Below are positions 5,029 to 61,573 of a stretch of 64,000 nt of DNA, one piece after another. Source of the stretch: Patescibacteria group bacterium (lineage in GTDB: Bacteria > Patescibacteriota > CPR2 > UBA1875). A program made the position numbers and the translations under genes. The notes under the pieces are model-generated. The model did not search any database. It had not been told where the DNA came from and was given only the letters and a program-made list of their open reading frames with translations. The DNA lies in assembly GCA_041737595.1 (NCBI GenBank), contig JBGSRK010000010.1, positions 46,393 to 110,392 of the forward strand, given 5' to 3'. Within the stretch, counting starts at the first letter, position 1; each line of letters starts with the position of its first letter.

Positions 5029-5064
5029 TCTCGTCATTCCCGCGAAGGCGGGAATCTAGATTGC
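5029..5064. repeat. palindromic GTCATTC...GAATC element (GTCATTCCCGCGAAGGCGGGAATC) in the tpi-fba intergenic spacer
   Basis: Inverted repeat ATTCCCGC/GCGGGAAT seen directly. The same GTCATTC...GAATC frame recurs at 9426-9452 and 52727-52786. Confidence 0.4.
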
Positions 5065-5106
5065 CAATCAATTGTTGTAACTATTTAATTATAAAATAAT
5101 GTCAAA

Positions 5107-5943
5107 TTATTTTTTCTTTTTTGTTTTTTTATTTGAATCTATTTTTTTAGATTTAGAATTTAGAATTAAGACTTCGGAAATTTCATCTTTGCCCTCAACT
5201 ATATTTACTATTTTTGTAAAAACTTTAAAATCTGGAGAAACTGTTCCTACAAGTACACCATCAATATCTGTTTCTTTTATAAAACTTTCTACATTTTTAT
5301 CATCAACACTACCACCATAAATAATATGTGTTGAATTTGCAGTTTTTTCTCCATAAAGTGCCTTAATCAAATCCCTAATTTGTTTTATTGCTTCATTTGC
5401 TTTTTTGGGTTCACAAACATGACCAGTTCCGATTGCCCAAACAGGTTCATAAGCAATAATAGATTTTGCAATCTCATCCTTAGTCAAATCAGAAAGTGAA
5501 GCTTCAAGTTGTCCAGTTACAACAAGCTTTGTTAAACCATCCATTTTTTCATGTAAAGATTCACCAACACAGATAACTGGAGTAATATTATGTCGTACTA
5601 AAGATGCTGCTTTTTTTGCCACAATTTTGTCTGTTTCTAAAAAATATTTTCTTCTCTCAGAATGGCCAACGATACAATATTTAGCAAACCCTTTTAATTG
5701 ATGAGCTGAAATCTCACCAGTGTAAGCACCAGCATCTTCCCAAAAAGTATTTTGGGCACAAATCTCAATATCGGAATTTTTAACTATATCAGAAGCTGGA
5801 TAAATAGATAAATATGAAGGGCAAACGGCCACAATTGTTTTGTCAACTTTAATTGTTTTTATTAAACGCTCTAAAAGAAGTGTGCTCTCTGGTACAGTTA
5901 AATTCATTTTCCAATTACCAATAACAATTTTAGTTCTATTCAT
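5107..5943 (-). CDS. tpiA: triosephosphate isomerase with Lys-rich C-terminal tail
   Basis: IGNWKMN, AYEPVWAIGTG and YGGSV TIM motifs. A ~30 aa extra K-rich tail (…KSKKIDSNKKTKKKK). Confidence 0.9.
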   Translation of the reverse strand: MNRTKIVIGNWKMNLTVPESTLLLERLIKTIKVDKTIVAVCPSYLSIYPASDIVKNSDIEICAQNTFWEDAGAYTGEISAHQLKGFAKYCIVGHSERRKYFLETDKIVAKKAASLVRHNITPVICVGESLHEKMDGLTKLVVTGQLEASLSDLTKDEIAKSIIAYEPVWAIGTGHVCEPKKANEAIKQIRDLIKALYGEKTANSTHIIYGGSVDDKNVESFIKETDIDGVLVGTVSPDFKVFTKIVNIVEGKDEISEVLILNSKSKKIDSNKKTKKKK

Positions 5944-8555: not shown

Positions 8556-9161
8556 TTATAATATTGTTTTACCGCGTTTATTATAGCGGTCATATTCATT
8601 AAAATTTCCGCCTGGATTAACTTTTTTCAATACTTCGTGTCTAGCTTTCACTGCAATATCATTTTTAAGTACATTATCCATTTGGCTCATATGTTCTGGG
8701 TCGGAAATAACTCCTTTTTCTTCCATGGCCATTTCTGAACTATTTATCGCAACATCTCTTGTCAATTTTCTTTGTGATGGAACTCCTCTTTTAATATATT
8801 CTATTTCTTTTTTATAAGAGTCTCTCGTAGATTCTCTACCAGTAATTACATCTTTAATTTTCTCAAATTTTGTTGTTGGTTCTTCTTCGGATGCTAGTTT
8901 TTCTTCCAATTCGTCGATTCTTTTATTATCTTCTTCGGCCATTTTTTGAGCCATTTCTTTATCATCTACTCTCAAGTAATTTTCATCACTTTTATCAGCT
9001 ACAAGTGCATTTCTTGCTTTTTCTATTGCACTTGTTTCTAAGGATTTTAATTGCCCAGTAGTTAAATCACTTAACCCTAATATTTTTTTTCTTTCATGAA
9101 GATCTTCAGATTTATAATCTACATCTTCGTTTTCTGCTTGATCTTTTTCTAATTCAGTCAT
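8556..9161 (-). CDS. hypothetical highly charged coiled-coil protein
   Basis: 201 aa, E/K-rich, no recognisable catalytic motif. Confidence 0.4.
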   Translation of the reverse strand: MTELEKDQAENEDVDYKSEDLHERKKILGLSDLTTGQLKSLETSAIEKARNALVADKSDENYLRVDDKEMAQKMAEEDNKRIDELEEKLASEEEPTTKFEKIKDVITGRESTRDSYKKEIEYIKRGVPSQRKLTRDVAINSSEMAMEEKGVISDPEHMSQMDNVLKNDIAVKARHEVLKKVNPGGNFNEYDRYNKRGKTIL

Positions 9162-9345
9162 ATAAATAACTCCTTATAAAATTTTGAACTGCCTATATAA
9201 TACTCCAATTAATATTTGTATTGCAAGGGGGGAAGGTTATTTTACGTTATTGTGAACAATAGCACGACAATCTATTTTCAACCACTCAGGGGTTCTTATA
9301 CCTTGACCACTAAAAAAGCCAGCGAGGTGCAAGCACTTCTCTGGC

Positions 9346-9364
9346 TTTTTGGCAGTCCCAAGGG
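9346..9364 (-). repeat. duplicated 3'-terminal fragment of tRNA-Glu (TTTTTGGCAGTCCCAAGGG), ~170 bp beyond the intact tRNA 3' end
   Basis: A 19-nt identical match to 9527-9545. The flanking ~60 bp (CCTTGAMACTAAAAARAGCC…) is also duplicated. Confidence 0.5.
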
Positions 9365-9531
9365 AACGACAAGTCGTATTCTCACCGCTATTCATAGTTA
9401 TATACTAGTGAAAGCAGAGCACTTTAGCTGTCATTCTGAACTTGTTTCAGAATCTATGTTTTTATCATGCAGGGCTTCTTACCCCTTGAAACTAAAAAGA
9501 GCCCGAGCGGATAAACCGTTCTGACTCTTTT

Positions 9532-9606
9532 TGGCAGTCCCAAGGGGATTCGAACCCCTGTTACTAGGATGAAAACCTAGCGTCCTAACCCCTAGACGAT
9601 GGGACC
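9532..9606 (-). tRNA. tRNA-Glu(TTC), CCA encoded
   Basis: Hand-folded cloverleaf: acceptor GGTCCCA/TGGGACT, D-stem GTCT/GGAC, anticodon stem CTAGG/CCTAG with loop TTTTCAT, T-arm AGGGG-TTCGAAT-CCCCT. Confidence 0.85.
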
Positions 9607-9855
9607 ATAAAAATTTATGTCACGTAATAACCTTTCTCTGATCTGCCCGTGACTTTTAAGCTGTTTTTCTCTCTTTCGAGCATCTGCATAGTTTTTATAC
9701 TGCTCTAGGTGTGCAATAACAAACGGTGCTCTTCCTTTAGTTGATTTATTATAACCTCTATTATGTTGATATAGTCTAGATTCAAAATTTTTTGTTATAC
9801 CAATGTAGAATCCTTTGTCCCTATCACTTTTCAAGATATAAACATAACAAATCAT
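9592..9855 (-). CDS. GIY-YIG nuclease family protein (UPF0213/YhbQ-like)
   Basis: VYILKSDRDKGFYIGITKNFESRLYQHN … E..LK is the GIY-YIG core. The track ORF (to 9981) has an N-terminal extension that just translates a tRNA fragment, so the start is more likely the ATG at 9855. The last 5 codons overlap the tRNA-Glu 5' end. Confidence 0.65.
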   Translation of the reverse strand: MICYVYILKSDRDKGFYIGITKNFESRLYQHNRGYNKSTKGRAPFVIAHLEQYKNYADARKREKQLKSHGQIRERLLRDINFYGPIV

Positions 9856-9877
9856 TATTCGATTATAAAGGTTTTTT

Positions 9878-9921
9878 GTCCTAACCTCTAGACCCTGCCT
9901 GCCGCAGGCGGGGATGGGACC
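9878..9921 (-). pseudogene. tRNA-Glu 5' fragment (acceptor/D-arm copy) interrupted by a 19-nt GC palindrome
   Basis: GGTCCCATC[CCCGCCTGCGGCAGGCAGG]GTCTAGAGGTTAGGAC matches the first 25 nt of the intact tRNA-Glu, then diverges directly into the GIY-YIG ORF. Confidence 0.5.
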
Positions 9922-10081
9922 GTGGACGCCACAAATTATACCATTCTTGAGCGTAAATTTCAATTCTAAATTATAAAACAAATACTAAAGCTATAAAGAT
10001 AGTTATTAAATCTTTTTTTATATTATTATTTGGATTAGTTATGCTCATATCCACCTTAATGAATCAGATGGTTTATTCCAT

Positions 10082-10612
10082 CTATCTCTCAAGCCACTGC
10101 TGTTTAAGATAAACTTCAGAATCGTGATTATTTTGTAACCAATCTCGAAGTGAAAAAATATTAAGAACTACTAATGGTTTTGCCTTCATGATTTTGTTAT
10201 TTAGTTTGTAATAAATTTCTTCCTTGCCACCCAGAAATCCTAAGGCTATCGACTTCTTAATATTTGAAGTTTTTTTATTAACCCCATATGCACTTAAATC
10301 TAAAGTTGGTGTTATTTTCCAAAACCTTGGCAGATTATCATATGTGAATCCTTGATCACCTATATTCCCAACCTTCTCGACTCCCAGTTCTTGCATATTC
10401 TTATTATTTAAACCAACAAAAACAGTAAAATCAGGCTTTTTTGCGAACATTTTTCTAAGTTTTTCTTCTGCTGGTCTTTTATTAAATTTTTGATTGTAAC
10501 AATTCATTAATAACCCATATTTTGGTAATTTTTGATAATCGAAAACAGCCAATACATAAGTAAGTCCTAAGCTTGTTGGTATTTCTAAAATATCACCAAT
10601 TTTTATGTTCAT
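10082..10612 (-). CDS. putative immunity protein for the upstream RHS C-terminal toxin
   Basis: 176 aa ORF immediately 3' of the RHS toxin gene on the same strand with a 28-bp gap. This is the canonical toxin/immunity position. No catalytic motifs. Confidence 0.45.
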   Translation of the reverse strand: MNIKIGDILEIPTSLGLTYVLAVFDYQKLPKYGLLMNCYNQKFNKRPAEEKLRKMFAKKPDFTVFVGLNNKNMQELGVEKVGNIGDQGFTYDNLPRFWKITPTLDLSAYGVNKKTSNIKKSIALGFLGGKEEIYYKLNNKIMKAKPLVVLNIFSLRDWLQNNHDSEVYLKQQWLER

Positions 10613-10640
10613 CGATTCTCCAATGATATAATATTATCTA

Positions 10641-13600
10641 TTATCTTAATAGGGCTTTCGTACCTTCATTTATGTAATGGCTATAATTAGGGTTTAGTGT
10701 AGATATCCCATTAATTTTATTTGCTAAATTAGTCAAGCCACCGTTATTATCTATTAATATCTGTTCAACGCCTCTCGCCTGAGCGTAAGTAAGATTACTA
10801 TAAACTTCCTGCACGATACGACCATCAGAAGACCACTCTTTTGCCCTTCGTACTATATCAACCGTTCTCCCTACGTAGTTTATAACCCCAGCAGATTTCT
10901 CCACATATACCGAATAGGTCCTGTCTGCTAACCCATTAGCGGCGGTAATGGTTGTACTAGATGCCACCAAGGCTTTGGCCAATATCGTTACGGAAGCTGC
11001 TGTAATGCCAGCGCTAATAGCGCCACTAATTGCCCCGCCAATTGCACCCGCAGTACTGCCCTTACTAAAACCATTATTAAATGAGTTACCGATGCTTGAC
11101 TTTTTACCACTCGCCCTGTCGATAGCCACCTGGGTAAGACCTCCAGCAACCCCACCAGCCACATAACCGGCAAGTGCACCCGTTATTGCACCTGCAACGA
11201 ATGCACCAGCAACATAACCAGCACCTGTGCCAAGCCCTCCCGTAGCTAAGCCGACCACCGCACCCACCGCAACACCAACTACCGTCCCAACAACCCCACC
11301 AACAATGGCTGCAGCATTGTTTTTCACCCAGCTAAAAAAACCTTTACCACTAGGGTCAATCCTAGTAATTGGGTTATTGGCCGTGTAAAGATATGGATTT
11401 TGATCTAGCGCAAATTCACTGGCCACCACAGGATCTTTTGAAAAGAACCGGCCCGTTTCGGGATCATACATACGAACCTTCATGAAGTACTGTGCAAGGT
11501 CAGAGTCGTACCAATAAGAAGCATATAATCTAGGGTTAAGTTCATTGAGATTTGCAGGTACGGTGTCTGATATAGTTTCCGACTTAAGAACGTTACCCCA
11601 AGAATCATATTCATAATTAACCACCTTAGCACCGGTGGTGTCCGTAAGCCCCAGTACATCGCCCTTAGCATTTTTTACATATTGATACGTTTTAAATGTC
11701 CCATCTGAATTGTATATAGAGATACTGATAAGGTTTTCATTTTCATCCCAAGTATATGCCCTAATCAAATTGCCATTTAAATCAGACTCAGAAATCAGCA
11801 TATCTCCGTCATAAGAGAAATTTATATAAGATTTAGTACCCGCTGTGTCGGTTTTAATACGTTGGATTCTCCGTCCAGAATTTGAATCATAAATGTACTC
11901 AATAACAACACCAGAAGGCAAAATTGCTTTCTTGAGCTTATTTGAACTATCATATTCATAGTTGGTAATACCTGATTTACTGTTGTTGCGACTTGTAACA
12001 TTCCCTGATTTATCATAAGAAAAAGTAGCCGAATAACTATTATTTTCGTCGTTGGCCGTGTAATTATACTGAGTAAGCTTATTACCATCACCGTTCTCAT
12101 CATAAGTATAATTTATAACGCCATCAGAACCATTTCGTGTGAGTCGGTTACCGGCAATATCATAACTATAACTATATTTTTCATCTTCAGTTAATTGGTT
12201 CCTTACATCATAGGAATAATTAAATCTTTCTTGCCTTACTTTATCAATTATCGAGGTAACGTTTGAATTGGCATCATATTCATAACCAAACGACGCCAGA
12301 ACCATAGCATTGCGATTAGTAGTTACCGTTGATATAGTACGTCCACCATTGTCATAACCAAATCTAGTTATATCACCATTTGCTTTTGTAATTTGAGTAA
12401 TTTTACCTTCCGCATCTCGCAATATTTGACCACTTGCCAGTACAGCGCCATTACTATTTTGTATATTAGTCACACCAGTCACCTGGTTATTCACATCGTA
12501 AGTCAGACTCACTGTATTTGTTGCGGAAACAGATTGAGTGATATTACCGGCTGCATCTACAGCATCTCTTGCAATACCATTAGTATTTGTTGCAATTTGA
12601 GTAGGTCTATTAACTGGGTCATAACTTACTGAAACGGTTTCGGAACCAGATGAAACCTGGAGATCATCAAAGGAAGCATTAGTTTGATAAGTCGCAAGTT
12701 CTATTTGACCTTCTTTAAGTCCACGCGTAAAGGTGTAATCAATAACTTTTACATTATTTACATATAGTTTTACATTTTCACCCAAAGACACAATTTTTAT
12801 GTTGTACCATGTATTTACAGCCAAAGTCCCAGTACCATTTGCGTATTGTTCTGTCTGACCAGTTATTACTGCCCCGGCACGCCATAATGAACCGATGTAG
12901 CCAATATAATAGTTATTGGCTCCACTAGAGCGATAAAGTAATCTAAAATACGGAGCAGTGGTTGAAGAACGGCGTACTCTAAATTCAACTGTACCATTAG
13001 AAAAGTTTAGATTTCGAATAGTGCTTTTACGATAAGTAGTTATAGCAGTTGAACTATCGGTTTGATTATATGTACCGCCAGTTAGATTCCAGCTACCAGA
13101 TATAGGCGCAAGTGAATCTTGGCGTGTAATATTAAAATCGTTTTTATATAACAATTTATTCACACTTGTAGTACCAGTAACTGCTGTTACATTATGATTT
13201 TTGTCATAAATATTATTTGAGCCACCCTCAGGAGTTACTGAATTTACAACAGCGCCCATCTTGTCATAAGTAGAAGTAGAGGTATTCCCCTTTTCGTCAG
13301 TAGTAGAAACAATATTCCCATTTCTATCATAAGTTACATTTATCGTATTACCTTCTGGGTCGGTCTGTGAAATAATTTGATTTAATACATCAAAGTTATA
13401 AGTAAAAATCTTTCCTTTTGCGTTTATCATTTTTACTTTATTCCCCACCTTGTCATATTCAAATTGAGTAGTAGCACCAGCTTCATCTGTCGCTTTTATC
13501 ATACGACCCAGTAAATCATAATCCATTAATCTTGCATTGCTTTTAGGGTCAGTTGTCTTGATTACATTACCACCTACACTATATTCAGTAATAATTGTTG

Positions 13601-16600
13601 TTCCTAAAGGATCAGTAACTTTTACTGGCCGATTAAGTCCGTCATATTCAATAGTAGAAATCTTACCAAGCGTAGATATATTCTTTATAATTAGCCCAAT
13701 ACTGTTATATTCGTTAGTCATAATTTCTCCTTTAGGAGTAACAGCCGTAAGAATATCTCCCTCCGAATTATAGGTATAACGGCTTACTTGTAATTTAGGG
13801 TCAGTAACCGAAACTATTCTGCCCATCGCATCATACCCATAAGTAGTAACCTTGGCGTTACTGTCGGTAACACTTAAAAGAAGTCTTTTACCATCTGTAG
13901 AATAAGTATATCTTGTAATTTGACCCTTCATATCTGTAGAAGAAGTCATATCATTCCCTACATATACATAAGTAGTTTTATTACCATCAGGATAAGTTGT
14001 CTCTAATAGATTACGATTAACATCATATTTATAATTTATGGAGTAGTAATAAATATCGTTTGTAGCAAGATCAGGGAATGTTTTTGTAAGATTAAAATTT
14101 ATATCATAAACATATTTTTCACGATAATTTTTAGCATTTGTCATCGTAGACAACATATTTGCACTATCAAACCCCAATTTAGTCACTCGACCAAGAGGGT
14201 CAGTAATAGTTGTTAATCTATCGACATATGTAATATTTGTTGCATTTCCGAGAGCATCCGTAATTGCATTAACTTTGTCCCCAGTATATGTTATCGAAGT
14301 AACAGCACCAGCTTTATCCCTAAATCTTTCTAATTTACTTGTTTCAATATATGAATATTCATAATAATTATCTTGACCATCAAACACTTTAGATAACACT
14401 CCATTTGCATCATATTCGTAACGAACCGCTTGATTTGCATTATTATTAACCTTTATTAGGCGACTGGCGGCATTATACTCAAACGCAAGTGACCGATTCT
14501 GATTAATTATACGTGAACAAAGACCATTAACATATTCATAACTTAAAGTATTACCTAATAAATTCGTTTTACGACTTATTTTCCCATCGGTACCAAAATA
14601 GCTTTTGTTACCAGATTTATCTAAAAGATAATATGTTCCATCCAAATTTTTAGTTAGAGATACAGTTATTCCTGCTGGTTTCTTATAGGTACCATCAGTA
14701 TTTTTTGTATATACATTAATATTTCCTGATCCATTTTTGTAATAGATATTTTCAGGATCAGATATATACAACCTCTCCTCAAAACTAGCACTCCAACCAC
14801 TCCCTAATACACCTTGATCTTTCCAAATTTCAGGGTTATAAGTACTATATATAAGCCCACTTAATGGTTGAGCAGATGTATTTGTAAATCTCGCCGACAT
14901 CTGCCAGCTGGCGGAGCCTTGAGAAACCTTTAAGGTAAGTGAGTTCCAGCCCTGTCGCAAATTTGCAGATACTATGTCACTATCAAGAGTTAGTGTTCTA
15001 GTAATTTCTCGAGAAATAAGAACTGTTCCATTTAACCAAGCCTTAATCCCATCATCAGAACCTAATCTTAATTGTACTGTCTGATCTGACGGTGAATAGA
15101 CATAAACATGAGCGTAGGCAGAAACATTAGTGGCCGTATCTACTTGGAAATTTGATAAACGGTGAAAAACCTGATTAAGTCTAACTTGAGTAGTCTCTGT
15201 TTCTGTTTCGGGGGCCCATAGATTATTACTTCCAGTCATACCTGGGCTTGGTTTCATAGTAGCTTCACCAGGTATAAATGCTTTAGTCAGCCTACTAGCA
15301 ACCACTGCTTCTTTATATGGACCATTAAAAAGCCATGTCTTTATATACCCATTTGCATCTTGATTAAAAGTCTTATTAGAAAGCTGATTTGAATCATAGC
15401 TTCTGCTAAATGAAACACCACCAATACTTGAAGGTACTGACATATCAGTAGAACTATAAGAAATTCCACCCGTTACAGCATCAACTGGCCCTACTTTAGA
15501 ATAAATCGAGTCAGACCCAATATGAGTTATAGAAGAAAATGATGGAGCACTTACCGTAACGGTTTTGAGACCCTTAACTACACCTTGATCAGAAAACCAA
15601 GTAATACCTGGCTGTATCATATCCCATTGAAGAGTATATGACCCAGCAATAGTTGGCACCTTCACTTTTGCTAAAACCGTTGTTATCCCACCCTTAGCAG
15701 CCACATTTGCTGGTATATCTGTCTGTAGCCCTGATTTTAAGACGGCACCGGTAGTATTATTAACCCAGTGATAACTAACCTTAGTTTGGCTAGATAACCA
15801 AACATTTCTACCCGTGTTTACAACTGTAATTGGAACTTCCGTCGTTGTACCTGCAAACATGGACGGTACATCAGTAGGATAATAAGTAGCATTATAATCA
15901 TTATAACTAACGGTTAATTTAGGATAACTATTACTGTAGTCAGGGTTATTCTTGGAAACCCAGGTGCGATAGCCCCAAGTACCTTCTGCGGTAGAGGCAA
16001 AACCAATAGAACCAATCCAAGATCCCGTGCTATTTCCACCTTCATACCAATGTCTCACTAGACTCGATACATCTTGATGGTACCAACCATATGGGTTTGC
16101 TTGTGAAGCAGACCCCCAACTATTAAGAAAAGCTGGTTTATTATTCCAATAAACATTAGTGGGGTTATAAGAAGCAGTTGTATAAGCAGTTACACTACTT
16201 GTAGGACAAACTCCATTACAGTTACCATATTGGTAAACATCAAAAGCAGCACTTAAAATTCGAGCACCAGAAAGGTCAGGTAAAGTAAACTTTGTTTCGG
16301 TTCTCATAATCCCTTTTGTTGAACCAGTCCCTACATATAATGCACGTTGATCCCACGATGTTGTTGTAGGATAACCACTTTGGACATAAGAATCCTCGGT
16401 TACATATTGAGTAATTGTAGGATCAATATAAATTGGGAATACACGCTCAGGTGCACTAAGCCACCTTAAGTCAGGTTTTACTGTTAAACGATAACCACCA
16501 GTAATAGTGCTTAAAACAGTGGGTACATTATAATTATATGAATTCTGTTCATTATCTTTACCACCTTTCGAATCCCACATTAAAAAACGTGGGATACGAA

Positions 16601-17309
16601 ATATTTCAGTATTAGTTCTTGCACTTACAATTTTATATGAACCATCACCTATCGCCGCAATTGTCCCACCACTTACAGCTAAGTCAAAAGAAAATTCTCC
16701 TAAAGAACTCTGTTTATAAAGTGTAATATATTCTTTTATACCATCATTAACTGAGTAAAAAGTTAAATCAGTATTTGGTATTACATTGGCATAATTAAGT
16801 TTATTAGTACCAGTTGTATAAGTTTTTGATGAAGCAGTTGATTTTGTAAGAAGCGTAGCACCTGTTTTAGATTTGAATTCACCAATATTGGCAGTAATAG
16901 AAACACCATCTTTATTTAATGAAAAACTTTTTTTTGAAAGATTCTTACTGAGTCTTAAATCAAAACTATTTTTATTATTTTTATAATCATCACCATATAA
17001 AAGACTACTTAAAAGACCAGTATCCGTAATATTTGAATCAATGTCCTCAAAAGTCCTTACATTATTTATTGTACTTTCATAATGCATAGGTATTTCGGCT
17101 GTTACTAGCTCCTTACTACCATCGGACTTAAGATAAATTTTGCTATTTTCTGTTCTTTTTGATGTAAGTTCTATTTTACCAGTGGCGGGTGGGGTAGGTT
17201 CTGCCTCAGCCGTAGCATCAGCAGCAGCAAAAGCAACTGATGGAGTAACTGGTAAAAGAGAAAACATCATTATAAATATTAAAAACCAGGAAAACATTTT
17301 TCTAAGCAT
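10641..17309 (-). CDS. secreted RHS/YD-repeat polymorphic toxin, 2222 aa: signal peptide, PA14-like and LamG-like inserts, YD repeats, RHS core (…YDPETGRFFSKDP…DPSGKG), Gly/Ala/Val-rich glycine-zipper segment, C-terminal GIY-YIG-like nuclease toxin domain
   Basis: N-terminal MLRKMFSWFLIFIMMFSLLPVTPSVAFA signal and many YEYD/YTYD/FEYD repeats. RHS core motif present. C-terminal YSVYVEKSAGVINYVGRTVDIVRRAKEW…GVEQIL resembles a GIY-YIG (URI) fold. GGAGGAGG RBS 5 nt upstream. GC clearly above the genome background. Confidence 0.85.
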   Translation of the reverse strand: MLRKMFSWFLIFIMMFSLLPVTPSVAFAAADATAEAEPTPPATGKIELTSKRTENSKIYLKSDGSKELVTAEIPMHYESTINNVRTFEDIDSNITDTGLLSSLLYGDDYKNNKNSFDLRLSKNLSKKSFSLNKDGVSITANIGEFKSKTGATLLTKSTASSKTYTTGTNKLNYANVIPNTDLTFYSVNDGIKEYITLYKQSSLGEFSFDLAVSGGTIAAIGDGSYKIVSARTNTEIFRIPRFLMWDSKGGKDNEQNSYNYNVPTVLSTITGGYRLTVKPDLRWLSAPERVFPIYIDPTITQYVTEDSYVQSGYPTTTSWDQRALYVGTGSTKGIMRTETKFTLPDLSGARILSAAFDVYQYGNCNGVCPTSSVTAYTTASYNPTNVYWNNKPAFLNSWGSASQANPYGWYHQDVSSLVRHWYEGGNSTGSWIGSIGFASTAEGTWGYRTWVSKNNPDYSNSYPKLTVSYNDYNATYYPTDVPSMFAGTTTEVPITVVNTGRNVWLSSQTKVSYHWVNNTTGAVLKSGLQTDIPANVAAKGGITTVLAKVKVPTIAGSYTLQWDMIQPGITWFSDQGVVKGLKTVTVSAPSFSSITHIGSDSIYSKVGPVDAVTGGISYSSTDMSVPSSIGGVSFSRSYDSNQLSNKTFNQDANGYIKTWLFNGPYKEAVVASRLTKAFIPGEATMKPSPGMTGSNNLWAPETETETTQVRLNQVFHRLSNFQVDTATNVSAYAHVYVYSPSDQTVQLRLGSDDGIKAWLNGTVLISREITRTLTLDSDIVSANLRQGWNSLTLKVSQGSASWQMSARFTNTSAQPLSGLIYSTYNPEIWKDQGVLGSGWSASFEERLYISDPENIYYKNGSGNINVYTKNTDGTYKKPAGITVSLTKNLDGTYYLLDKSGNKSYFGTDGKISRKTNLLGNTLSYEYVNGLCSRIINQNRSLAFEYNAASRLIKVNNNANQAVRYEYDANGVLSKVFDGQDNYYEYSYIETSKLERFRDKAGAVTSITYTGDKVNAITDALGNATNITYVDRLTTITDPLGRVTKLGFDSANMLSTMTNAKNYREKYVYDINFNLTKTFPDLATNDIYYYSINYKYDVNRNLLETTYPDGNKTTYVYVGNDMTSSTDMKGQITRYTYSTDGKRLLLSVTDSNAKVTTYGYDAMGRIVSVTDPKLQVSRYTYNSEGDILTAVTPKGEIMTNEYNSIGLIIKNISTLGKISTIEYDGLNRPVKVTDPLGTTIITEYSVGGNVIKTTDPKSNARLMDYDLLGRMIKATDEAGATTQFEYDKVGNKVKMINAKGKIFTYNFDVLNQIISQTDPEGNTINVTYDRNGNIVSTTDEKGNTSTSTYDKMGAVVNSVTPEGGSNNIYDKNHNVTAVTGTTSVNKLLYKNDFNITRQDSLAPISGSWNLTGGTYNQTDSSTAITTYRKSTIRNLNFSNGTVEFRVRRSSTTAPYFRLLYRSSGANNYYIGYIGSLWRAGAVITGQTEQYANGTGTLAVNTWYNIKIVSLGENVKLYVNNVKVIDYTFTRGLKEGQIELATYQTNASFDDLQVSSGSETVSVSYDPVNRPTQIATNTNGIARDAVDAAGNITQSVSATNTVSLTYDVNNQVTGVTNIQNSNGAVLASGQILRDAEGKITQITKANGDITRFGYDNGGRTISTVTTNRNAMVLASFGYEYDANSNVTSIIDKVRQERFNYSYDVRNQLTEDEKYSYSYDIAGNRLTRNGSDGVINYTYDENGDGNKLTQYNYTANDENNSYSATFSYDKSGNVTSRNNSKSGITNYEYDSSNKLKKAILPSGVVIEYIYDSNSGRRIQRIKTDTAGTKSYINFSYDGDMLISESDLNGNLIRAYTWDENENLISISIYNSDGTFKTYQYVKNAKGDVLGLTDTTGAKVVNYEYDSWGNVLKSETISDTVPANLNELNPRLYASYWYDSDLAQYFMKVRMYDPETGRFFSKDPVVASEFALDQNPYLYTANNPITRIDPSGKGFFSWVKNNAAAIVGGVVGTVVGVAVGAVVGLATGGLGTGAGYVAGAFVAGAITGALAGYVAGGVAGGLTQVAIDRASGKKSSIGNSFNNGFSKGSTAGAIGGAISGAISAGITAASVTILAKALVASSTTITAANGLADRTYSVYVEKSAGVINYVGRTVDIVRRAKEWSSDGRIVQEVYSNLTYAQARGVEQILIDNNGGLTNLANKINGISTLNPNYSHYINEGTKALLR

Positions 17310-17339: not shown

Positions 17340-17370
17340 AAAAAAGACCGCACAGGGCGGTCGTAAAAAT
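17340..17370 (-). terminator. rho-independent terminator-like hairpin (GACCGCCCTGTGCGGTC + T-run on the minus strand)
   Basis: Perfect 7-bp GC stem followed by TTTTTT in minus-strand sense, between the kinase and RHS genes. Confidence 0.5.
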
Positions 17371-17611
17371 ATCCTCTAACGCTATTATAGCCAGTGAGTT
17401 GTAAAACGACAGGCTTGTATGCCTGTCCCCCTTTCTCAAAACATTAAGCGAACTGCTCAACATTGATAATCCTTATATTTAATTAAGCTAATACTATACC
17501 TAGGTATAATTAATGTCAATAGTTTTTATTTGTCATCTTAGTTATGGCTAATAATAGTAAGTAAGCGGTAGAGTATATTATTTTTGCTTGTCCCTAAATT
17601 TCAATTATAAA

Positions 17612-20017
17612 TTATGATTTTACTTTTAGTTCTTTTGCAGTTTGTTCGAGGTCTTTTTTATCTACACTATCAGGAAGGGGCGTTTCAATCCCTGCTGCTT
17701 TTGTTGCAATCACATCTCCTGTGGCAATTGGACTCCCAGGTGTAACAGTTGCTCCTATTTCTGCTTTTGTATTTTCTAAAACTGATGGGCTAACCCCTAT
17801 TCCTGCAGCAAGTTCTCCAATAGCTGGGGTTGTAGGAGAACCAGGTGTTGGGGCAGGAGCAGAAGCTCGTTTTATTTTTAATTTTGATTTTATTGGTAAT
17901 TTAAATCCAAATACTGATCCTTTGCCTTCTTCTGAATGAAAAATAAGTTCTCCACCATGATCATCCATAACACGTTTTGCAAGATAAATCCCAAGCCCTG
18001 TTCCATCTGGACGAACATGTCTTGCGTTATCGGCTCGATAAAACTTAGTAAACAAATTTGCCTGTTGAGCCTTAGGGACACCAATACCTGTATCTGTTAC
18101 TTTAAAAATAACGTTTTCTTTATCATGTTCAAGGGTTATTGTGGCACTTCCTTCAGTCGTATAATAAACCGCATTATCTATAAAATTCATCATTACCTGT
18201 CTTATTTTTGTTTCGTCGGCCCAAACATGAGGAGTTTTGCCCTTTATTACAAGTGATAATTTTAATTTCTTTTCTTTAGCATGATTTTGTAATTGTTTAA
18301 CTTCTTCCCCTGCCACTCTTTCCATATCAATCTCCACTGGTTCAATAAAAAATCTGCCTGTTTCCATTCTTGATACATTCAAAAGATCATTTATTAACCC
18401 AACCATACGATTTGCGCCCGAAAAAGCCTCGTTTACGAAGTCGTATTGTGAAACTTTTATTTCCCCTGCATCACCTTCAAGCAACATAGAAAGATAGCCC
18501 TTGATGGCTGTAAGTGGTGTACGAAGCTGATGAGAAGCCATTGAGATAAATTCATCCTTAGCTTTATCAAGTTCTCGGAGCTGACTATTCTTTTTTTCAA
18601 GTTCATGAGTTGCTTTTTTAATCTCCTGCCGTAAAGTAACATTAAATTTTTCAATCTTTTCAAAAGACTTTGCATTAGTAATCGCAACTGCCATTTCTGG
18701 AGCAATAATTTCAAATATTTTATGATCAGAACCAGAATACATATCACCAGATTGTTTTTCGCCAAGAAGAAGTACACCAACTGTGTCTGCATTTGTTTTT
18801 ATCGGCACAGAAACAGAAACATTATATTTTTTTAGAAGTTTTTTATAATGAGATGAGTCTTCTAATTCATCACTAATTAATATGCCATCTTTTGCAAGCT
18901 TAACTATATCTGCTTCTTCTAATTTTATTGCTTCTTTATAACCTATGGTTTGAGAATTATATATCTCGCCAACATCTGTTAAAACAACTAAAACCCCTCT
19001 TGTAATTTTCATTTCACGCTGCAGAAGTTCAAGTATTTTATACATCATTTCAATAAGAACAATTGTGGAACCGATTGTATGCGCAAAAGTATCTAGAAGT
19101 GCCTCTGGATCATATTGATTTTTAAAGAATATTTTATCTGTAATACGCGTAATCCAACGCTTAAGTGGTTGGAAAGAGAAAGCCATAAGAACAGCAAGAG
19201 TTGTACGAACGGCCATTTGTCCAAGATTTAATGTGTTTTGTCCTGGGAATAAAATACGCTCAAATCCAAAAACACCTCCAGCGTAAATTGCCGCCATTGA
19301 AAATACCAGAATTGAATACGCCACAGACCGCGCCACCACCATCCGAATATCCATCATTTTATGTTTGACAATCGCATAAGCAGTAAATGATAAGAAGAAA
19401 ATTAAAGAAGAAGGGATAATGCTTGAACCAACAATCTTCCCTAACATTAAAGAAATCCCCAAAATTGACAATGCAATAACAGCAGTTAAAAATACTCCAA
19501 AAAACATCAGTTTAATCTGTTCTCTAACTATCCCTTTTGATTTATAGCGCTTATATAAAAGCATGCTAAGGGCTAAAATTGAATATAAAATAAAATATAT
19601 TTGAAAATATATATAAAGTTGGCCTGGAATCATTTCAGCTATATTCCCATCAACTATATTTACAGATAAATTTGAATTACTTAATAAATAAGGGAGAAAG
19701 AATAAAGGTGGCAAAAATAAAACTAGTTTGAATATTTTATTAATTTTTGGTTTTTCAATAGGAAAATATATAGAAAAAAGCAATAAAAAAGAAGCAATAA
19801 ATAATGCTCCTAATAATGTGGTCCTAGACCAAAAAAGTTCTCCACTTACAGTACTTGAAAAATCGGCAAGTATATTAGTTATTAACCATAACACCATTGA
19901 TGCACCAATCCCGGCAAAACTAATATTGATACTGTTTTTTATATTACGCAACAAAACTAATATTGAAATAAATATTGTTACTAATAAAACTAAAATTCCA
20001 ACGTATGTTCCAAACAC
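17612..20017 (-). CDS. sensor histidine kinase with N-terminal multi-TM sensor domain, HisKA (SHQLRTPLTAIKGY), HATPase_c and a Pro/Thr/Gly-rich C-terminal tail
   Basis: ~9 TM helices at the N-terminus, then H-box, then N/G1/G2 boxes (NFIDNAVYYT, DTGIGV, GLGI). 801 aa. Confidence 0.85.
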   Translation of the reverse strand: MFGTYVGILVLLVTIFISILVLLRNIKNSINISFAGIGASMVLWLITNILADFSSTVSGELFWSRTTLLGALFIASFLLLFSIYFPIEKPKINKIFKLVLFLPPLFFLPYLLSNSNLSVNIVDGNIAEMIPGQLYIYFQIYFILYSILALSMLLYKRYKSKGIVREQIKLMFFGVFLTAVIALSILGISLMLGKIVGSSIIPSSLIFFLSFTAYAIVKHKMMDIRMVVARSVAYSILVFSMAAIYAGGVFGFERILFPGQNTLNLGQMAVRTTLAVLMAFSFQPLKRWITRITDKIFFKNQYDPEALLDTFAHTIGSTIVLIEMMYKILELLQREMKITRGVLVVLTDVGEIYNSQTIGYKEAIKLEEADIVKLAKDGILISDELEDSSHYKKLLKKYNVSVSVPIKTNADTVGVLLLGEKQSGDMYSGSDHKIFEIIAPEMAVAITNAKSFEKIEKFNVTLRQEIKKATHELEKKNSQLRELDKAKDEFISMASHQLRTPLTAIKGYLSMLLEGDAGEIKVSQYDFVNEAFSGANRMVGLINDLLNVSRMETGRFFIEPVEIDMERVAGEEVKQLQNHAKEKKLKLSLVIKGKTPHVWADETKIRQVMMNFIDNAVYYTTEGSATITLEHDKENVIFKVTDTGIGVPKAQQANLFTKFYRADNARHVRPDGTGLGIYLAKRVMDDHGGELIFHSEEGKGSVFGFKLPIKSKLKIKRASAPAPTPGSPTTPAIGELAAGIGVSPSVLENTKAEIGATVTPGSPIATGDVIATKAAGIETPLPDSVDKKDLEQTAKELKVKS

Positions 20018-22819: not shown

Positions 22820-23203
22820 TTAAACTTGATTATTAATCTTTTCTTTTAACTTATTCCAAAATAAAAAGGTTGAAATAAAAATCCAACCAATAAAAAGCAC
22901 CCAGAACCACCAAGGAATATTTCGGCCCCAACCAATTACATAAATATATGGCATAACCCAAGCGGCTCGATTAACCACTAATGGGAAAATAAATCCGTTT
23001 TCGGTTAGAATATCTGTAATTTTAAGATTTAAATTTTTGTCTTTATATCTTTTTCTAAAATCTACTGCCTCGCGCAAAAGCCCATACCAACCGAAGTAAT
23101 AGAATGGGACAGAAAATAACATCAAAAAAATAAATATTTTTGGGTCAACATGATATTGGTTAACAGCGAGATCGTTCCATATCTGAATAATATTAATATT
23201 CAT
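22820..23203 (-). CDS. small integral membrane protein (3-4 TM)
   Basis: Hydrophobic segments with W-rich PWWFWVLFIGWIFI. Overlaps the GNAT gene by 11 nt. Confidence 0.45.
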   Translation of the reverse strand: MNINIIQIWNDLAVNQYHVDPKIFIFLMLFSVPFYYFGWYGLLREAVDFRKRYKDKNLNLKITDILTENGFIFPLVVNRAAWVMPYIYVIGWGRNIPWWFWVLFIGWIFISTFLFWNKLKEKINNQV

Positions 23204-23981
23204 CCCTTATGAGCCCCCCTAAACTAACAATAGAACGAACCACAACTTCGTTACCTGGTTTTAAATAATGTTTTGCAAAAATTCGAAGCTTTTTATCTGG
23301 GATATTTTCTGTTTCTCTAAAAATAAGATTCGGCTTATCATCATAAAAACCTATCATTACGTCACCACATCTATCAAGTTTTCGATAAGTTTCACCTGTT
23401 GCTTTAAGATAAAGATTGATCGTTTCCCAAGTTCTATCATCTGCATAATCAATCTTCCCTGTTTTCTCGTCTACTTTATACGGGTTAGGATAAATAAAAT
23501 CAGCCACTTTTGCTAAAGCCCCAATAGTTCTAATATTAGGAGTAATAAAAACAAACTCAATTTTTGTTTTAAAGTGTAATAAATTTTCCATGAATATTTT
23601 AAGGCCAAGAGTAGCATGCATTTTTTTCATAAAGCCAAGCCCTTGATAATCAGGGTCAACAGCCGTAAGCCCAAATGAATACACATATCTTCCATCAATA
23701 TGAATTTTTTTAATCGGGGCTACCCCAATTAGATCATCCTTATTATTTCTTAAAAGCATTAAATATCTTGTATGTAAAATACTGTTTTCCAAATATTTCT
23801 TAGGAAATTTGCCCCAAGCTTTTTCAACCACTTTTGAAATCTCTTCAAGCGCTTCGGATTGATTTTTTTTAGGGATATTGTTTAGCGAATCTTTAATTAT
23901 TTCGGCATAAAAATGAACACTCTCTGCAGAGCGTACCACTCTTAATTCTTTAACATTACTAAATTTAGAATAACGCTTCAT
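23193..23981 (-). CDS. GNAT-family N-acyltransferase-like protein
   Basis: Motif A-like YQGLGFMKKMHA (Q/R-x-x-G-x-G/A) preceded by a beta-strand rich region. 262 aa. Confidence 0.5.
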   Translation of the reverse strand: MKRYSKFSNVKELRVVRSAESVHFYAEIIKDSLNNIPKKNQSEALEEISKVVEKAWGKFPKKYLENSILHTRYLMLLRNNKDDLIGVAPIKKIHIDGRYVYSFGLTAVDPDYQGLGFMKKMHATLGLKIFMENLLHFKTKIEFVFITPNIRTIGALAKVADFIYPNPYKVDEKTGKIDYADDRTWETINLYLKATGETYRKLDRCGDVMIGFYDDKPNLIFRETENIPDKKLRIFAKHYLKPGNEVVVRSIVSLGGLIRDEY

Positions 23982-24174: not shown

Positions 24175-24843
24175 TTAAGAAACTTTTTTTCTATATTTTT
24201 TTAGAAAAACTTTAATTGTTTTTGATAAAATCTTTCCAAAGTCTTTTTCTGATTTCGCAATTTTTTCGATATCTTTTCTAAGATTTTGGTGGTTTGGATA
24301 TCCTTTAGACGGTATACTCCATTTTTCAAATTCAGGGTTCAGAAGTACTGTTAGCGCTTCTTTAATATCATGTGCTTGTTGATTTGAAAGACCAGCATCA
24401 AGCATCATCTTCCAATAATATTTATGAACTATAAGATGCATACATTCATGCATCGCAGTTTTATAAAACCAATCTGGACTTGCCCCATAATGGGCATAAA
24501 ATCCCCCATCATCCGAATCATATGGACAACGCATATTAGTTGTAAAAATTACATAAACTTCTTTAAATGGTACTTTTTTACCAGTTATTTTTATAAGAGG
24601 TTCTTCTATATTTTTTGGATTTATGGCAACCTGCATCCATTCAATATATTTTTTTACTGCACCACTCTTATAATATTTATTATTTAAATATGCACGCATT
24701 TTCTTTTTATCATGAGCATCCTTTTTTGTTAGATCTTTGGGCCAATTTTTAAGCCAATCCTGCCCATAGGAACCTGTATTATTTAAGGTTTCTTGCCAAT
24801 TCCAAACATCACTAGATATACTTTCCTTATATATTAATTTCAT
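24175..24843 (-). CDS. hypothetical HExxH protein (possible zinc metallopeptidase)
   Basis: HECMHLIVH motif. 222 aa with a K-rich C-terminus. Strong AAAGGAGA RBS. Confidence 0.45.
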   Translation of the reverse strand: MKLIYKESISSDVWNWQETLNNTGSYGQDWLKNWPKDLTKKDAHDKKKMRAYLNNKYYKSGAVKKYIEWMQVAINPKNIEEPLIKITGKKVPFKEVYVIFTTNMRCPYDSDDGGFYAHYGASPDWFYKTAMHECMHLIVHKYYWKMMLDAGLSNQQAHDIKEALTVLLNPEFEKWSIPSKGYPNHQNLRKDIEKIAKSEKDFGKILSKTIKVFLKKYRKKVS

Positions 24844-25908: not shown

Positions 25909-28290
25909 TTAACCCATTAATGTACCAACCCAAGTTAACGAACCTGCAGGTAATCCAACTGCAATGCCAGCAATGCCCATATTTCTTAATATATGATTTC
26001 TAACAATATTCTCTTCATCATGTCTCTTATCTATAGATCTATCAAAAGTTCTTATAGACTCTAACAATATCTTACTCCTAGCTGCTTCAATTTCTCCAAG
26101 AGTTAATGGGATTTTTTCACCTTTTTTTTCTTGAGCTTTTTTTAGTTCTTTTTTAAGTTTCTCGACTGTAAGCACTTTAAGTCTTTTCGTCATTTCTTCT
26201 ACTTGGTGTTCATAACTTAGTCTATCTTCCTCATGTGCACCTCTTATCGGATGTACACCAGTCCCAATTCTTTCGCCAACTCTTATATTATGTGCAGCCT
26301 GTGCACCAAGTCTTTTATAAATATCATCTTCTGACATTGCATCAATTACTCCAGATTCTTGTTTATGTAATAAACTATCTCTATTTCTATTCCTTGTCTC
26401 AGAGAAGGCGTGAGTTGCAGATGCTGCAGATGTGGCACCAAGTAGCCCAACAACTATTGGTAAACCGCCACTAGCTGTTAGAGTAATGGCTGCACCAGAA
26501 ATAGCAATTGATGCGACAGATGAAATAACTGGATGTTTTCTAATAAAATTTTTCACCTTCCGATAGGCACCACCAAACAAACCTTCATTATCTTCTTTAT
26601 CAGCTTCTTCATTAATTCTGTTTTTACTTTCTTCTTCAAAAAATAATTTTGCGGTTTCTTCGTGAACTAAATCAAAGAAAGATTTTGCCCATTTTTCTAA
26701 TTTTTTATTGTATTGTTCAAGAGTTTCTTTAGGTTTTGGTTTTAATCTTTCCCATTCATCCATTTGCATAGGTCTCTTTGGTTTTATATCTCTTTTTGCA
26801 TTCTCATATTCTTCTATTGTTAATGGTTCTTGAGGTTTTTCATCTTTATGTTTAATTAATGATTTTTCATATTTAGCCACTTTAAGATCAAAATCAATTT
26901 GTGTTTCGTTTACCCCTCTTTTTGGTGGTACTGGTTCACTGCCTTTCCAAGCCTTTAATTTTTTATCATACTCATATGGGTTTCTCGATTCATAATTTTC
27001 TTTCCATTCTTTTTCTCTCAAAGTATATTTATATGGGCTCACATCATCATTAGCTTCTTCCCATTCTTTTAATGTTTTTTCATAAGTCTCTTCTGTTTCT
27101 ATTCTTTCGGGCCTTCTTCCACGTTCACTTCTTTTAGCCCTTGCTAATCCTTCTTGATTCGCATAATTTAGGATACCTGATTCATATTCAACACGAGCAC
27201 GATTTAATTCACCCTGTTTAGCTGGGTTCCAAGTGAATTGTGATCTAAGTTTTCTTTTATCTAAAAGTCTATCAGTATAATTGTTTCTTAGTGTTGAAAT
27301 ATCAATATATCCGCCTGTTTCTCCTGAACTTTCATATAACTTAGTTGCAGTTTCAATTAATGTATAGTTTGTATCATCGATTTTTTCAGTTTCAGACGGT
27401 TCAACAGAATCACCATCTTCACTCCTTGGCTTGTTCCCACTCCCATCATTATCACTATTTTCTCCATCCTCCCCAGTAGTTGCTGGGGGAGTATTATTTG
27501 GGTCTGGTGGAGTTGATGGTTGAATTGGAGGTTGAACAGGCTCTTCGTCTTCATCTTCTTTAGTTTCTTTTTTACCCTCTTCTTCTAAAATTTTATCTAT
27601 AGTTGAAATAGTATCGTTAATCCATTCTAATGTGGTTCTTATTTCAGTTGAAGTCCCTTCGTCTTCGACATGAGATCTTATTAAAATTTGAATCGCAAGA
27701 AGAACTTTTTTCATTTTTTTCGCATCTATCATATCTTCTACAAATTCAGCGGGGTTATTACTAATTTGTTCTAACTTAGCCAATAAACTTTTGACCCCTT
27801 TGGGAGAAATTTCAGTTAATACTTTTAATATTTCTTCTGATAGAAATTCACCACCTTTGGCTTTTTCACCTTTTTCTTCTACTTCTTTAGCCTCTTTTTC
27901 TGCTCGTTCTTTTGCTATAATTTCATCTAATTTCTCTTTTTGAGCCTTTTCCATTTCTCTTTTTGCAGCATTTTCTTGTCTTTGAGTTACTTCAAAAAAT
28001 GGTCTTATTTCACCAACTCTATCCCCAGTTTCATCTATAATATCTCCTATACGCGCGCCTCCACGTACTAAAGAATCATTCGATTTTATTCTAGAATTAA
28101 TTTGATTTCTAGTTTGTTCGACTGTCATATCTGACTGCTCGGCAATTTCTTGAACATTGGTTGCACCTAAACCTTCGGCAGTTTTAAAATCATCACCAAA
28201 CTCTCCATTATGCATAGAGTCTGTATATTGAGTAGTTGGAGACTTATCTCCTCCCCCCTCTAATTCATGATATGAAATAACTTCGCTCAT
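25909..28290 (-). CDS. large hypothetical acidic protein with Pro-rich linker and two C-terminal hydrophobic hairpins
   Basis: 793 aa. Long E/K/D-rich coiled-coil-like regions, PPIQPSTPPDPNNTPPATT linker, and C-terminal TM-like AISGAAITLTASGGLPIVVGLLG and GIAGIAVGLPAGSLTWVG. Confidence 0.4.
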   Translation of the reverse strand: MSEVISYHELEGGGDKSPTTQYTDSMHNGEFGDDFKTAEGLGATNVQEIAEQSDMTVEQTRNQINSRIKSNDSLVRGGARIGDIIDETGDRVGEIRPFFEVTQRQENAAKREMEKAQKEKLDEIIAKERAEKEAKEVEEKGEKAKGGEFLSEEILKVLTEISPKGVKSLLAKLEQISNNPAEFVEDMIDAKKMKKVLLAIQILIRSHVEDEGTSTEIRTTLEWINDTISTIDKILEEEGKKETKEDEDEEPVQPPIQPSTPPDPNNTPPATTGEDGENSDNDGSGNKPRSEDGDSVEPSETEKIDDTNYTLIETATKLYESSGETGGYIDISTLRNNYTDRLLDKRKLRSQFTWNPAKQGELNRARVEYESGILNYANQEGLARAKRSERGRRPERIETEETYEKTLKEWEEANDDVSPYKYTLREKEWKENYESRNPYEYDKKLKAWKGSEPVPPKRGVNETQIDFDLKVAKYEKSLIKHKDEKPQEPLTIEEYENAKRDIKPKRPMQMDEWERLKPKPKETLEQYNKKLEKWAKSFFDLVHEETAKLFFEEESKNRINEEADKEDNEGLFGGAYRKVKNFIRKHPVISSVASIAISGAAITLTASGGLPIVVGLLGATSAASATHAFSETRNRNRDSLLHKQESGVIDAMSEDDIYKRLGAQAAHNIRVGERIGTGVHPIRGAHEEDRLSYEHQVEEMTKRLKVLTVEKLKKELKKAQEKKGEKIPLTLGEIEAARSKILLESIRTFDRSIDKRHDEENIVRNHILRNMGIAGIAVGLPAGSLTWVGTLMG

Positions 28291-42129: not shown

Positions 42130-42262
42130 AAGTATATTATAATACTTATGTTTGGATACTCAAGAGTTATTTATAAAAAATCATTATTATATAGCCAAAA
42201 AAAATATAACTTTTTTTCTGCTTTTTTTAGTCCTCTTAGTGCGTTAAAATAATATTATCATA

Positions 42263-44233: not shown

Positions 44234-44234
44234 T

Positions 44235-61551: not shown

Positions 61552-61573
61552 ATATTTTCCTTATATACTTTCA

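Follow-up and report, generated by a model that had tools for sequence, protein, structure and literature searches.

A probable two-gene RHS polymorphic-toxin module with a predicted GIY-YIG nuclease tip and a divergent Imm26-like candidate immunity gene

When a very long RHS gene is followed at once by a small gene without a recognizable family, are the two a polymorphic toxin and its immunity gene, and if so, what would the toxin do and how would it reach its target? We asked this of a locus on the reverse (-) strand of a 64,000-nucleotide (nt) stretch of contig JBGSRK010000010.1 (the whole stretch is called the window below, and all positions are counted from its first letter). There, the gene for an RHS/YD-repeat protein of 2222 amino acids (aa) at 10641-17309 is followed, 28 nt further on, by an open reading frame (ORF) of 176 aa at 10082-10612. 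A sequence-only reading of the window had taken the pair for an RHS toxin with a GIY-YIG-like C-terminal domain and its cognate immunity gene. The two ORFs were recovered as described, and each computational test that we ran supported this core proposal. We estimate at roughly 80% the probability that the locus is a two-gene polymorphic-toxin module, an RHS protein with a GIY-YIG nuclease tip plus a cognate immunity gene, that acts by the mechanism set out below. This view is carried by the domain identities, the GIY-YIG fold of the tip, its intact active-site residues and the genomic pairing of the nuclease and immunity families. The identical window sequence is present in two sequencing runs.

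The large protein is built as an RHS carrier, and its reading frame is uninterrupted over 6.7 kb. Profile scans found YD/RHS repeats in 11 stretches (PF05593, E=4.9e-70; TIGR01643, E=1.1e-45) that, together with a partial match to an RHS_core model, outline a shell at aa ~830-1900 (11610-14822). The shell is followed by an RHS-associated core at aa 1901-1988 (11346-11609; TIGR03696, E=1e-15, 58 bits against a cutoff of 32.5), in which the motifs YDPETGRFFSKDP...NPITRIDPSGKG, running from YDPETGRF to DPSGKG, can be read just ahead of the variable tip. Cleavage at this core is presumed from what is known of the family. At the other end of the protein, residues 1-28 (17226-17309) read as a Sec-type signal peptide, MLRKMFSWFLIFIMMFSLLPVTPSVAFA followed by AA (AFA-AA at the apparent junction; maximum KD19 hydropathy 2.11), and form the only hydrophobic segment outside the tail.

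Several further domains lie between the signal peptide and the core. A DNRLRE domain at aa 305-467 (15909-16397; NF033679, E=1.6e-16, 60.8 bits against a cutoff of 34) is likely a surface or carbohydrate-binding module. It is followed by DUF6531 at aa 608-645 (15375-15488; PF20148, E=1.2e-7, 32.4 bits against 24.1), a domain common at the start of RHS shells. Both come in addition to the domains that the sequence-only reading had named. That reading had listed a signal peptide, a YD-repeat shell, a LamG-like insert and an RHS core ending as in ITRIDPSGKG, all of which were recovered, and a PA14-like domain, for which the evidence is weaker than claimed: the match is sub-threshold (PF07691, E=0.054, 13.7 bits against a cutoff of 24), and we describe the region at aa ~650-815 (14865-15362) as beta-sandwich-like. 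This region is kept, with 47-48% identity, in the nearest full-length relative, a 2089-aa protein from another metagenome (P0003, at locus L003), which is ~40% identical to the window protein from end to end, tail included. The LamG/concanavalin-like domain sits within the shell at aa ~1380-1560 (12630-13172; PF06439 at aa 1438-1552, E=1.3e-6, 29 bits against 26.8). Since P0003, otherwise collinear, lacks only the ~175 aa at this position, we regard the domain as a true insert.

What does the carrier deliver? Its last 97 residues (aa 2126-2222; 10644-10934), hereafter the C-terminal toxin domain (CT), are a predicted GIY-YIG (URI) nuclease of the Tox-URI1 type, as supported by a family profile and a structure model. 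Homologues were collected by an exhaustive HMMER search of 1.84 billion cluster representatives, which returned 430 representatives at E<=1e-3. In the 150 matches listed, the median distance from the end of the domain to the C-terminus is 8 residues, and 15 of these proteins exceed 1000 aa. All seven full-length carriers that were fetched or scanned contain RHS repeats (P0003, P0017, P0023, P0054, L003, L089 and L093), and the linkers between core and tip are mutually unrelated across the family (the zipper described below, HINT domains and others). Judged from these sequences, the tip behaves as a separable module placed at the C-terminus in nearly all family members.

A 50-member alignment of the CT has seven invariant columns (Y10, Y20, G22, T24, R30, E57 and N72), which are also invariant or near-invariant in 121 sequences, while R54 is present in 111 of these. 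The corresponding residues of the window CT are all intact (Y2135, Y2145-V-G2147, R2155, R2179-G-V-E2182 and N2197). This family signature is the one published for Tox-URI1, namely Y, YxG, R, [RK]xxE and N (Zhang, Iyer, Aravind et al. 2012, Biol Direct 7:18; PMC3482391), a family described with RHS repeats and with the immunity families Imm14, Imm26, Imm44 and Imm51 (PMC3482391). In Pfam scans, 39 of the 50 members matched GIY-YIG (PF01541) at E<=1, with a best E of 2.3e-6 and one member (L089) above the gathering score (23.4 bits against 22.6); none of the 50 matched Tox-URI2. Compared with solved structures, the family profile found the UPF0213 protein 1zg2 (E=4.9e-4) and then T4 EndoII, I-TevI, UvrC and SLX1, and in hhalign it aligned with a free-standing GIY-YIG ORF elsewhere in the window (93% probability, E=2.4e-7). 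An AlphaFold2 model of the CT made on the family alignment has a mean predicted local distance difference test (pLDDT) of 95.5 and a beta-beta-alpha-beta-alpha-alpha topology, in agreement with the three-stranded sheet and flanking helices of the GIY-YIG fold, and it resembles I-TevI and UvrC; the top Foldseek matches of the model are all UvrC GIY-YIG domains, with probabilities of 0.92-1.00. A word-indexed protein search with the CT found no relative. Because the direct searches with the CT came back empty, the assignment rests on family-level and structural evidence: the GIY-YIG domain that had been proposed from the letters is upheld for the family, whereas the window CT itself has no profile match.

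Is the downstream ORF the cognate immunity gene? It has its own ribosome-binding site (GGAGAA), and hydropathy analysis gave no transmembrane segment in its product. A word-indexed search for homologues returned only the protein itself, and a single-sequence search against solved structures returned nothing meaningful. Its apparent status as an ORFan is an artefact of the method: the search missed a 184-aa relative that surfaced through genomic context, encoded 11 nt downstream of the P0003 gene and 38% identical to the 176-aa protein (E=3e-41). Because the P0003 locus is collinear throughout, this pairing could reflect common descent alone. A sharper test was a metagenome scan seeded with the immunity alignment only. 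It found six loci in organisms of 46-61% G+C content (GC), and in four of them (L089, L091, L092 and L093) the same CT ends the ORF just upstream of the immunity-like gene, with E values from 9e-8 (L092, where the ORF is cut to 55 residues) to 1e-26. At L090 the upstream sequence is missing, and L094 holds an orphan immunity-like gene. The same alignment found nothing in the genome-contig collection that was scanned.

The two immunity sub-families align with each other in hhalign (97.9% probability, E=4.5e-13 over 152 columns), and two of the six metagenomic members match Pfam Imm26 (PF15428), the best with E=9.7e-5. Together with the synteny in relatives, these sequence comparisons make the 176-aa ORF best described as a divergent Imm26-like candidate immunity protein. 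The pairing of the downstream gene with this CT is thus conserved in four metagenomic loci and in P0003, as expected of the cognate immunity gene that had been proposed; two of the relatives match an Imm family, while the 176-aa ORF itself has no Pfam match. Orphan CT/immunity cassettes, which the sequence-only reading had also led us to look for, were absent from the rest of the window, where the sole other profile match was the free-standing GIY-YIG ORF.

The relatives also show variations on this arrangement. A second immunity paralog lies further downstream of the P0003 RHS gene, and between it and the first is an ORF of ~141-155 aa without annotation (L003 12282-14059; L004 9509-11286), which makes a small poly-immunity array that has no counterpart in the window. 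Four of the metagenomic immunity-like proteins (L089 6698-7438, L090, L092 and L093 8001-8744) carry an additional C-terminal RraB domain (PF06877, E down to 3.6e-7), and the nuclease-family member P0017 is followed by a DUF695 protein (L006 6477-6923). Domains of the RraB and DUF695 types may be recurrent partners of this nuclease family.

A number of observations weigh against a toxin-immunity interpretation of the window locus. The window CT matches no Pfam or NCBIfam model at E<=1, and a single-sequence search against solved structures (PDB sequences) gave nothing meaningful. It also carries Trp2159 where 94 of 121 members have the His of an RRxxE-H arrangement, although Trp and Gln each account for 11% of the family at this position and the Trp is found in 13 of 121 members, including the full-length P0003. 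The 176-aa ORF is itself without a Pfam or NCBIfam match; its link to Imm26 is a transitive one, in which the best relative scores 23.0 bits, under the cutoff of 23.3, and a structure model of the protein from a two-sequence alignment reaches a pLDDT of only 33. Other CT members are followed by small ORFs of unrelated kinds, such as one for a DUF695 protein and ORFs of 139 and 169 aa that have no annotation. The pairing of the CT with Imm26-like proteins is thus one of several, and such a one-toxin-many-immunities pattern is usual. As to delivery, Pfam and NCBIfam scans of the RHS protein gave no cell-wall anchor (CWB, SLH, LysM or sortase signal), and no secretion-system gene or receptor was identified.

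Taken together, the domains suggest the following course of events. The RHS protein would be exported through Sec by means of its N-terminal signal peptide and would display its lectin-like or adhesive domains (DNRLRE, the beta-sandwich and the LamG-like insert) at the surface, while the YD-repeat shell would fold around its own C-terminal ~234 residues. The core, from YDPETGRF to DPSGKG, is expected to cut the chain autoproteolytically, and the encapsulated cargo would then consist of a glycine-zipper segment and the ~97-aa GIY-YIG (Tox-URI1) nuclease. Contact with a target cell would release this cargo, with the hydrophobic segment probably aiding insertion into the membrane or its crossing. 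The nuclease would cut nucleic acid, most likely DNA, with the canonical Tyr/Tyr/Arg/Glu/Asn site, and the producer would be protected by the cytosolic 176-aa Imm26-like protein, presumably through direct binding of the toxin.

The glycine-zipper segment deserves closer attention. It spans aa 1989-2125 (10935-11345) and is rich in Gly, Ala and Val, as the sequence-only reading had noticed; together these make up 55% of its residues. There are 17 GxxxG motifs in it, and its hydropathy peaks three times, at aa ~2006-2022, 2038-2047 and 2098-2109; with the signal peptide, these peaks are the four hydrophobic features of the whole protein. Its first 72 aa hold just two charged residues. The segment is kept in P0003, including an AGGVAGG[LV]TQV motif, and a strongly hydrophobic, GxxxG-rich stretch occurs within the 120 residues before the nuclease in 15 of 117 CT representatives. 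The carriers that were checked are C-terminal pieces of RHS proteins whose zipper begins directly after the DPSG motif, giving a recurring layout of RHS core, two to four GxxxG helices and Tox-URI1; by eye and unaligned, their zipper sequences look different from one another. The codons of the segment have a peculiarity of their own: at 10899-11501 the GC is 49.9%, whereas the amino acids and the codon usage of the window predict 43.1%, so that synonymous choice is unusually GC-rich there, in contrast to the remaining RHS gene.

Placed after the RHS core, the zipper would belong to the presumed released cargo, in the position that cell-entry domains occupy in other polymorphic toxins. Because of this position, and because there is no membrane-type immunity gene at the locus, we infer by analogy that it serves as an aid to membrane insertion or translocation and favor this over a second toxin. 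A bolder version, which we offer only tentatively and would not bet on, is that the zipper is a self-inserting device that carries a soluble nuclease across the target membrane unaided, as the cargo of a simply Sec-exported RHS protein, in a bacterium without a type VI secretion system (T6SS) or toxin-complex (Tc) injector, possibly an ultra-small cell of the Patescibacteria kind. If this were true, the segment would be a convergent or fast-evolving entry module rather than a linker.

Could the zipper instead be the toxin, or the main one, depolarizing or perforating membranes with the nuclease as a second payload? Membrane-acting toxins are usually paired with membrane-embedded immunity proteins, and the lone small downstream ORF at this locus encodes a soluble protein without a transmembrane segment. 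The immunity family, moreover, tracks the nuclease: loci L089 and L093 have nuclease and immunity gene and no zipper, and the zipper occurs in just the 15 of 117 representatives mentioned above. We therefore find this explanation unlikely, even though 17 GxxxG motifs and three hydrophobic helices lie beyond the RHS cleavage boundary, hence in the delivered part, and glycine-zipper C-termini are established membrane-depolarizing toxins (PMC12744356, PMC5380434, PMC11630599). The converse idea, that the nuclease tip has decayed and that the RHS protein is now only a large surface adhesin, would account for the replacement of His by Trp at RRxxE-H and for a CT below the Pfam threshold. We hold it to be very improbable: the seven residues that are invariant in the family are all preserved, the same Trp is seen in 13 of 121 members, P0003 among them, the ORF is unbroken over 6.7 kb, and the immunity gene is intact and retained, and is duplicated in the P0003 relative.

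The toxin-immunity reading leaves room for different targets and routes of delivery. The toxin might be aimed at a host, if an episymbiont of the Candidate Phyla Radiation (CPR) type used it to damage or kill its bacterial host and scavenge nucleotides. The low GC of the window (32.9%), its glycolysis operon, RNase Y, type IV pilus PilB/PilC cluster and lamin-tail-domain protein are consistent with such an organism without proving it, as is the lack of a close relative in the genome collection, where a scan with GAPDH gave at most 60% identity, to many phyla, among the matches listed. A tightly linked immunity gene is, however, the hallmark of antagonism between kin or competitors, in which the risk is self-intoxication by neighbors, and the same toxin/immunity pair occurs in metagenomic organisms of 46-61% GC that are unlikely to be episymbionts, so we regard a host-directed weapon as improbable. 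The protein could also be an Rhs effector delivered by a T6SS, or act like TcC within an ABC (Tc) toxin complex, given that RHS shells with Tox-URI1/GIY-YIG tips have been reported with T6SS and TcdB/TcaC trafficking (PMC3482391) and that PAAR-RhsA-GIY-YIG candidates are known in Salmonella (PMC10469887). Yet the RHS protein has no PAAR, VgrG-related, SpvB, TcdB or TcA domain at E<=1 and has a classical Sec signal peptide. In a scan of ~30 of the window's ORFs, no vgrG, chaperone, T6SS or Tc gene appeared, the neighbors being housekeeping genes and the T2SSE/T2SSF matches at 42.2-45.4 kb belonging to pilus-type PilB/PilC homologues. Of all the explanations weighed here, this one seems to us the farthest-fetched.

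How the module arrived is a separate question. It had been proposed to lie in a compositionally foreign island, with a GC of about 38-50% against a background of ~30%. Measured values are 36.7% for the RHS gene and 30.1% for the immunity ORF against 32.5% for the rest of the window, and 49-51% is reached only at 10900-11499, in the zipper codons. The excess of the RHS gene lies mainly at codon position 2 (0.44), while both genes have a GC of 0.24 at codon position 3 (GC3), where the window averages 0.20 (standard deviation 0.067). From its own amino acids and the codon usage of the window, the RHS gene is expected to have 34.6% GC; the residual of +2.1 points corresponds to 1.4 standard deviations (gene-to-gene standard deviation 1.5 points), and the residual of the immunity gene, +1.1 points, is at background. 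The GC excess is thus mostly a matter of amino-acid content, and we rejected the GC-based case for an island. The true compositional outlier of the window is a block at 60.4-64 kb (60436-63960), in which four (-) strand genes, among them those for an ABC-2 permease and an ABC ATPase, have a GC3 of 0.35-0.44 and a GC of 7 to 9 points over the codon-usage expectation.

Horizontal acquisition, which had been suggested from composition and from a nearby tRNA-Glu, accordingly loses its compositional argument and retains another, weak and independent hint. Two (-) strand copies of a 29-nt direct repeat, identical at 25 of 29 positions, exactly bracket the leader, the RHS gene and the immunity gene. 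The upstream copy (17587-17615) overlaps the stop codon of a histidine-kinase gene and a promoter-like TTGAAA -35 element, and the downstream copy (9946-9974) forms the -35 element of a strong promoter-like site before a half-copy of tRNA-Glu. When the two intergenic regions were shuffled 300 times, the best score was 21 matches, short of the observed 25. The rest of the window lacks the motif, and its presence at these two sites only led us to discard the idea of a common promoter motif. The module may have been inserted between the histidine-kinase gene and the promoter of the tRNA-Glu; duplication of a promoter is the alternative. In the P0003 relative the module lies among different genes. 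No integrase was found.

The tRNA-Glu region beside the module had fairly been called rearranged. It contains an intact tRNA-Glu(UUC) at 9532-9606, a 5' half-copy at 9878-9921 that matches at 24 of 25 positions once a 19-nt insert, itself a GC hairpin, is removed, and a perfect 20-nt copy of the tRNA 3' end at 9345-9364, accompanied by a terminator-like hairpin. The free-standing GIY-YIG ORF (9592-9981, (-) strand, likely ATG at 9855; PF01541, E=4.7e-14) is located between the immunity gene and the intact tRNA, with the half-copy upstream of it and the intact tRNA, which its 3' end overlaps by 15 nt, downstream. The stretch 9345-9974 has the appearance of a tRNA gene into which a GIY-YIG mobile cassette has moved.

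On the other side of the module, the RHS gene is preceded by a leader of ~180-210 nt, both in the window and in the relative L003, that runs from a TTGACA-type promoter to a GC hairpin with a T-run. This terminator-like hairpin lies ~25-35 nt before the start codon, at 17340-17362 ((-) strand, ~30 nt upstream of the RHS start) in the window and at ~5941-5970 in L003. From these two sequences, the leader is a possible transcription attenuator; its folds are not clearly better than those of shuffled sequences (z of -1.35 and -1.98), and Rfam gave no known RNA in it. L003 has, at 5040-5640, a GC-rich stretch of ~600 nt without a long ORF in an otherwise AT-rich contig. A terminator-like hairpin closes this stretch shortly before the RHS leader begins, and it matched no Rfam family at the gathering threshold.

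The neighbors scanned comprise a glycolysis operon, the histidine kinase, methyltransferases, RNase Y (36980-38524), the PilB/PilC cluster, a lamin-tail-domain protein, RuvB and LepA. At 40828-45443 the lamin-tail-domain protein (433 aa) adjoins a PilB-type ATPase (T2SSE+MshEN, E=9e-130) and a PilC-type T2SSF platform protein; taken with RNase Y, this is a pilus cluster of a kind common in ultra-small episymbiotic bacteria. Several ORFs have no Pfam family at the thresholds used, at 25909-28290 (793 aa), 23193-23981 (262 aa), 24175-24843 (222 aa), 46972-48330 (452 aa) and 8556-9161 (201 aa), and the 793-aa protein is a singleton cluster in a collection of 15 billion proteins.

How does the module compare with known systems? 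It falls in the pairing of Tox-URI1 and Imm26 published in 2012, as a divergent example. It shares with the RHS toxins of that pairing the signature, the RHS carrier, the extreme C-terminal position of the nuclease and the small gene for a cytosolic immunity protein directly downstream, Imm26 being among the partners listed for them (PMC3482391), and it differs from them in that neither the window CT nor the immunity protein matches a Pfam model directly, in the Trp at the place of the common His, and in the long zipper between core and nuclease. When the 2012 paper was searched by zipper- and membrane-type terms, no such segment was mentioned for the Tox-URI1 family (PMC3482391). Dense GxxxG hydrophobic helices in a delivered C-terminal region are instead a feature of the glycine-zipper membrane toxins, such as EsxX/TspA of S. 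aureus, CdzC/D of Caulobacter and the ionophoric CdiA-CTs (PMC12744356, PMC5380434, PMC11630599). There the zipper itself is the toxic part and is matched by membrane-associated immunity, whereas here it precedes a nuclease and has no separate immunity gene.

Other RHS systems resemble the locus in architecture. The PAAR-RhsA-GIY-YIG proteins of Salmonella SPI-6, candidate T6SS effectors by prediction, likewise have an Rhs carrier that ends in a GIY-YIG DNase domain, and are encoded in a bicistronic unit with a predicted immunity gene (PMC10469887); in the literature that we searched, Rhs toxins with GIY-YIG tips are described solely from computational prediction. The Salmonella proteins need a T6SS, carry PAAR and have an immunity protein annotated as CdiI-like, while the window protein has a signal peptide and no PAAR. 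In the TcB-TcC (BC) cocoon of the ABC (Tc) toxins, an RHS shell is said to encapsulate the toxin and to release it autoproteolytically. The window protein has the same combination of an RHS shell and a conserved aspartyl-protease core before a C-terminal toxic domain, from which we infer a similar release. It differs in having no TcA/TcB partner and no SpvB or TcdB domain, and its target is likely bacterial rather than eukaryotic.

The closest functional analogue appears to be of the Sec-exported WapA type rather than of the T6SS or Tc type, because the protein has no PAAR, VgrG, SpvB, TcdB or TcA domain and the scanned neighbors are without T6SS or Tc genes. WapA/WapI of Bacillus subtilis is reportedly a Sec-exported, wall-associated YD/RHS contact-dependent inhibition toxin with its immunity protein. 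Common to both are the Sec signal, the lack of a dedicated injection machinery, the RHS shell with a variable nuclease tip and the immunity gene directly downstream. The tips of WapA are tRNases, unlike the GIY-YIG tip found here, and WapA has cell-wall-binding repeats, in place of which we detected DNRLRE, beta-sandwich and LamG-like domains. Against this background, the locus adds a divergent and well-delimited pair of the Tox-URI1/Imm26 type on a Sec-exported RHS carrier, and it offers as a handle a nuclease family of ~97 residues, seven of them invariant, for which there is a confident structural model. Should the host be an episymbiotic CPR bacterium, the module would be a candidate weapon in its interaction with hosts or competitors; otherwise it is an ordinary polymorphic toxin locus. 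The one feature that might reward experimental work is the recurrent zipper before the nuclease, which could reveal how RHS toxins without an injection machine bring their cargo into a target cell.

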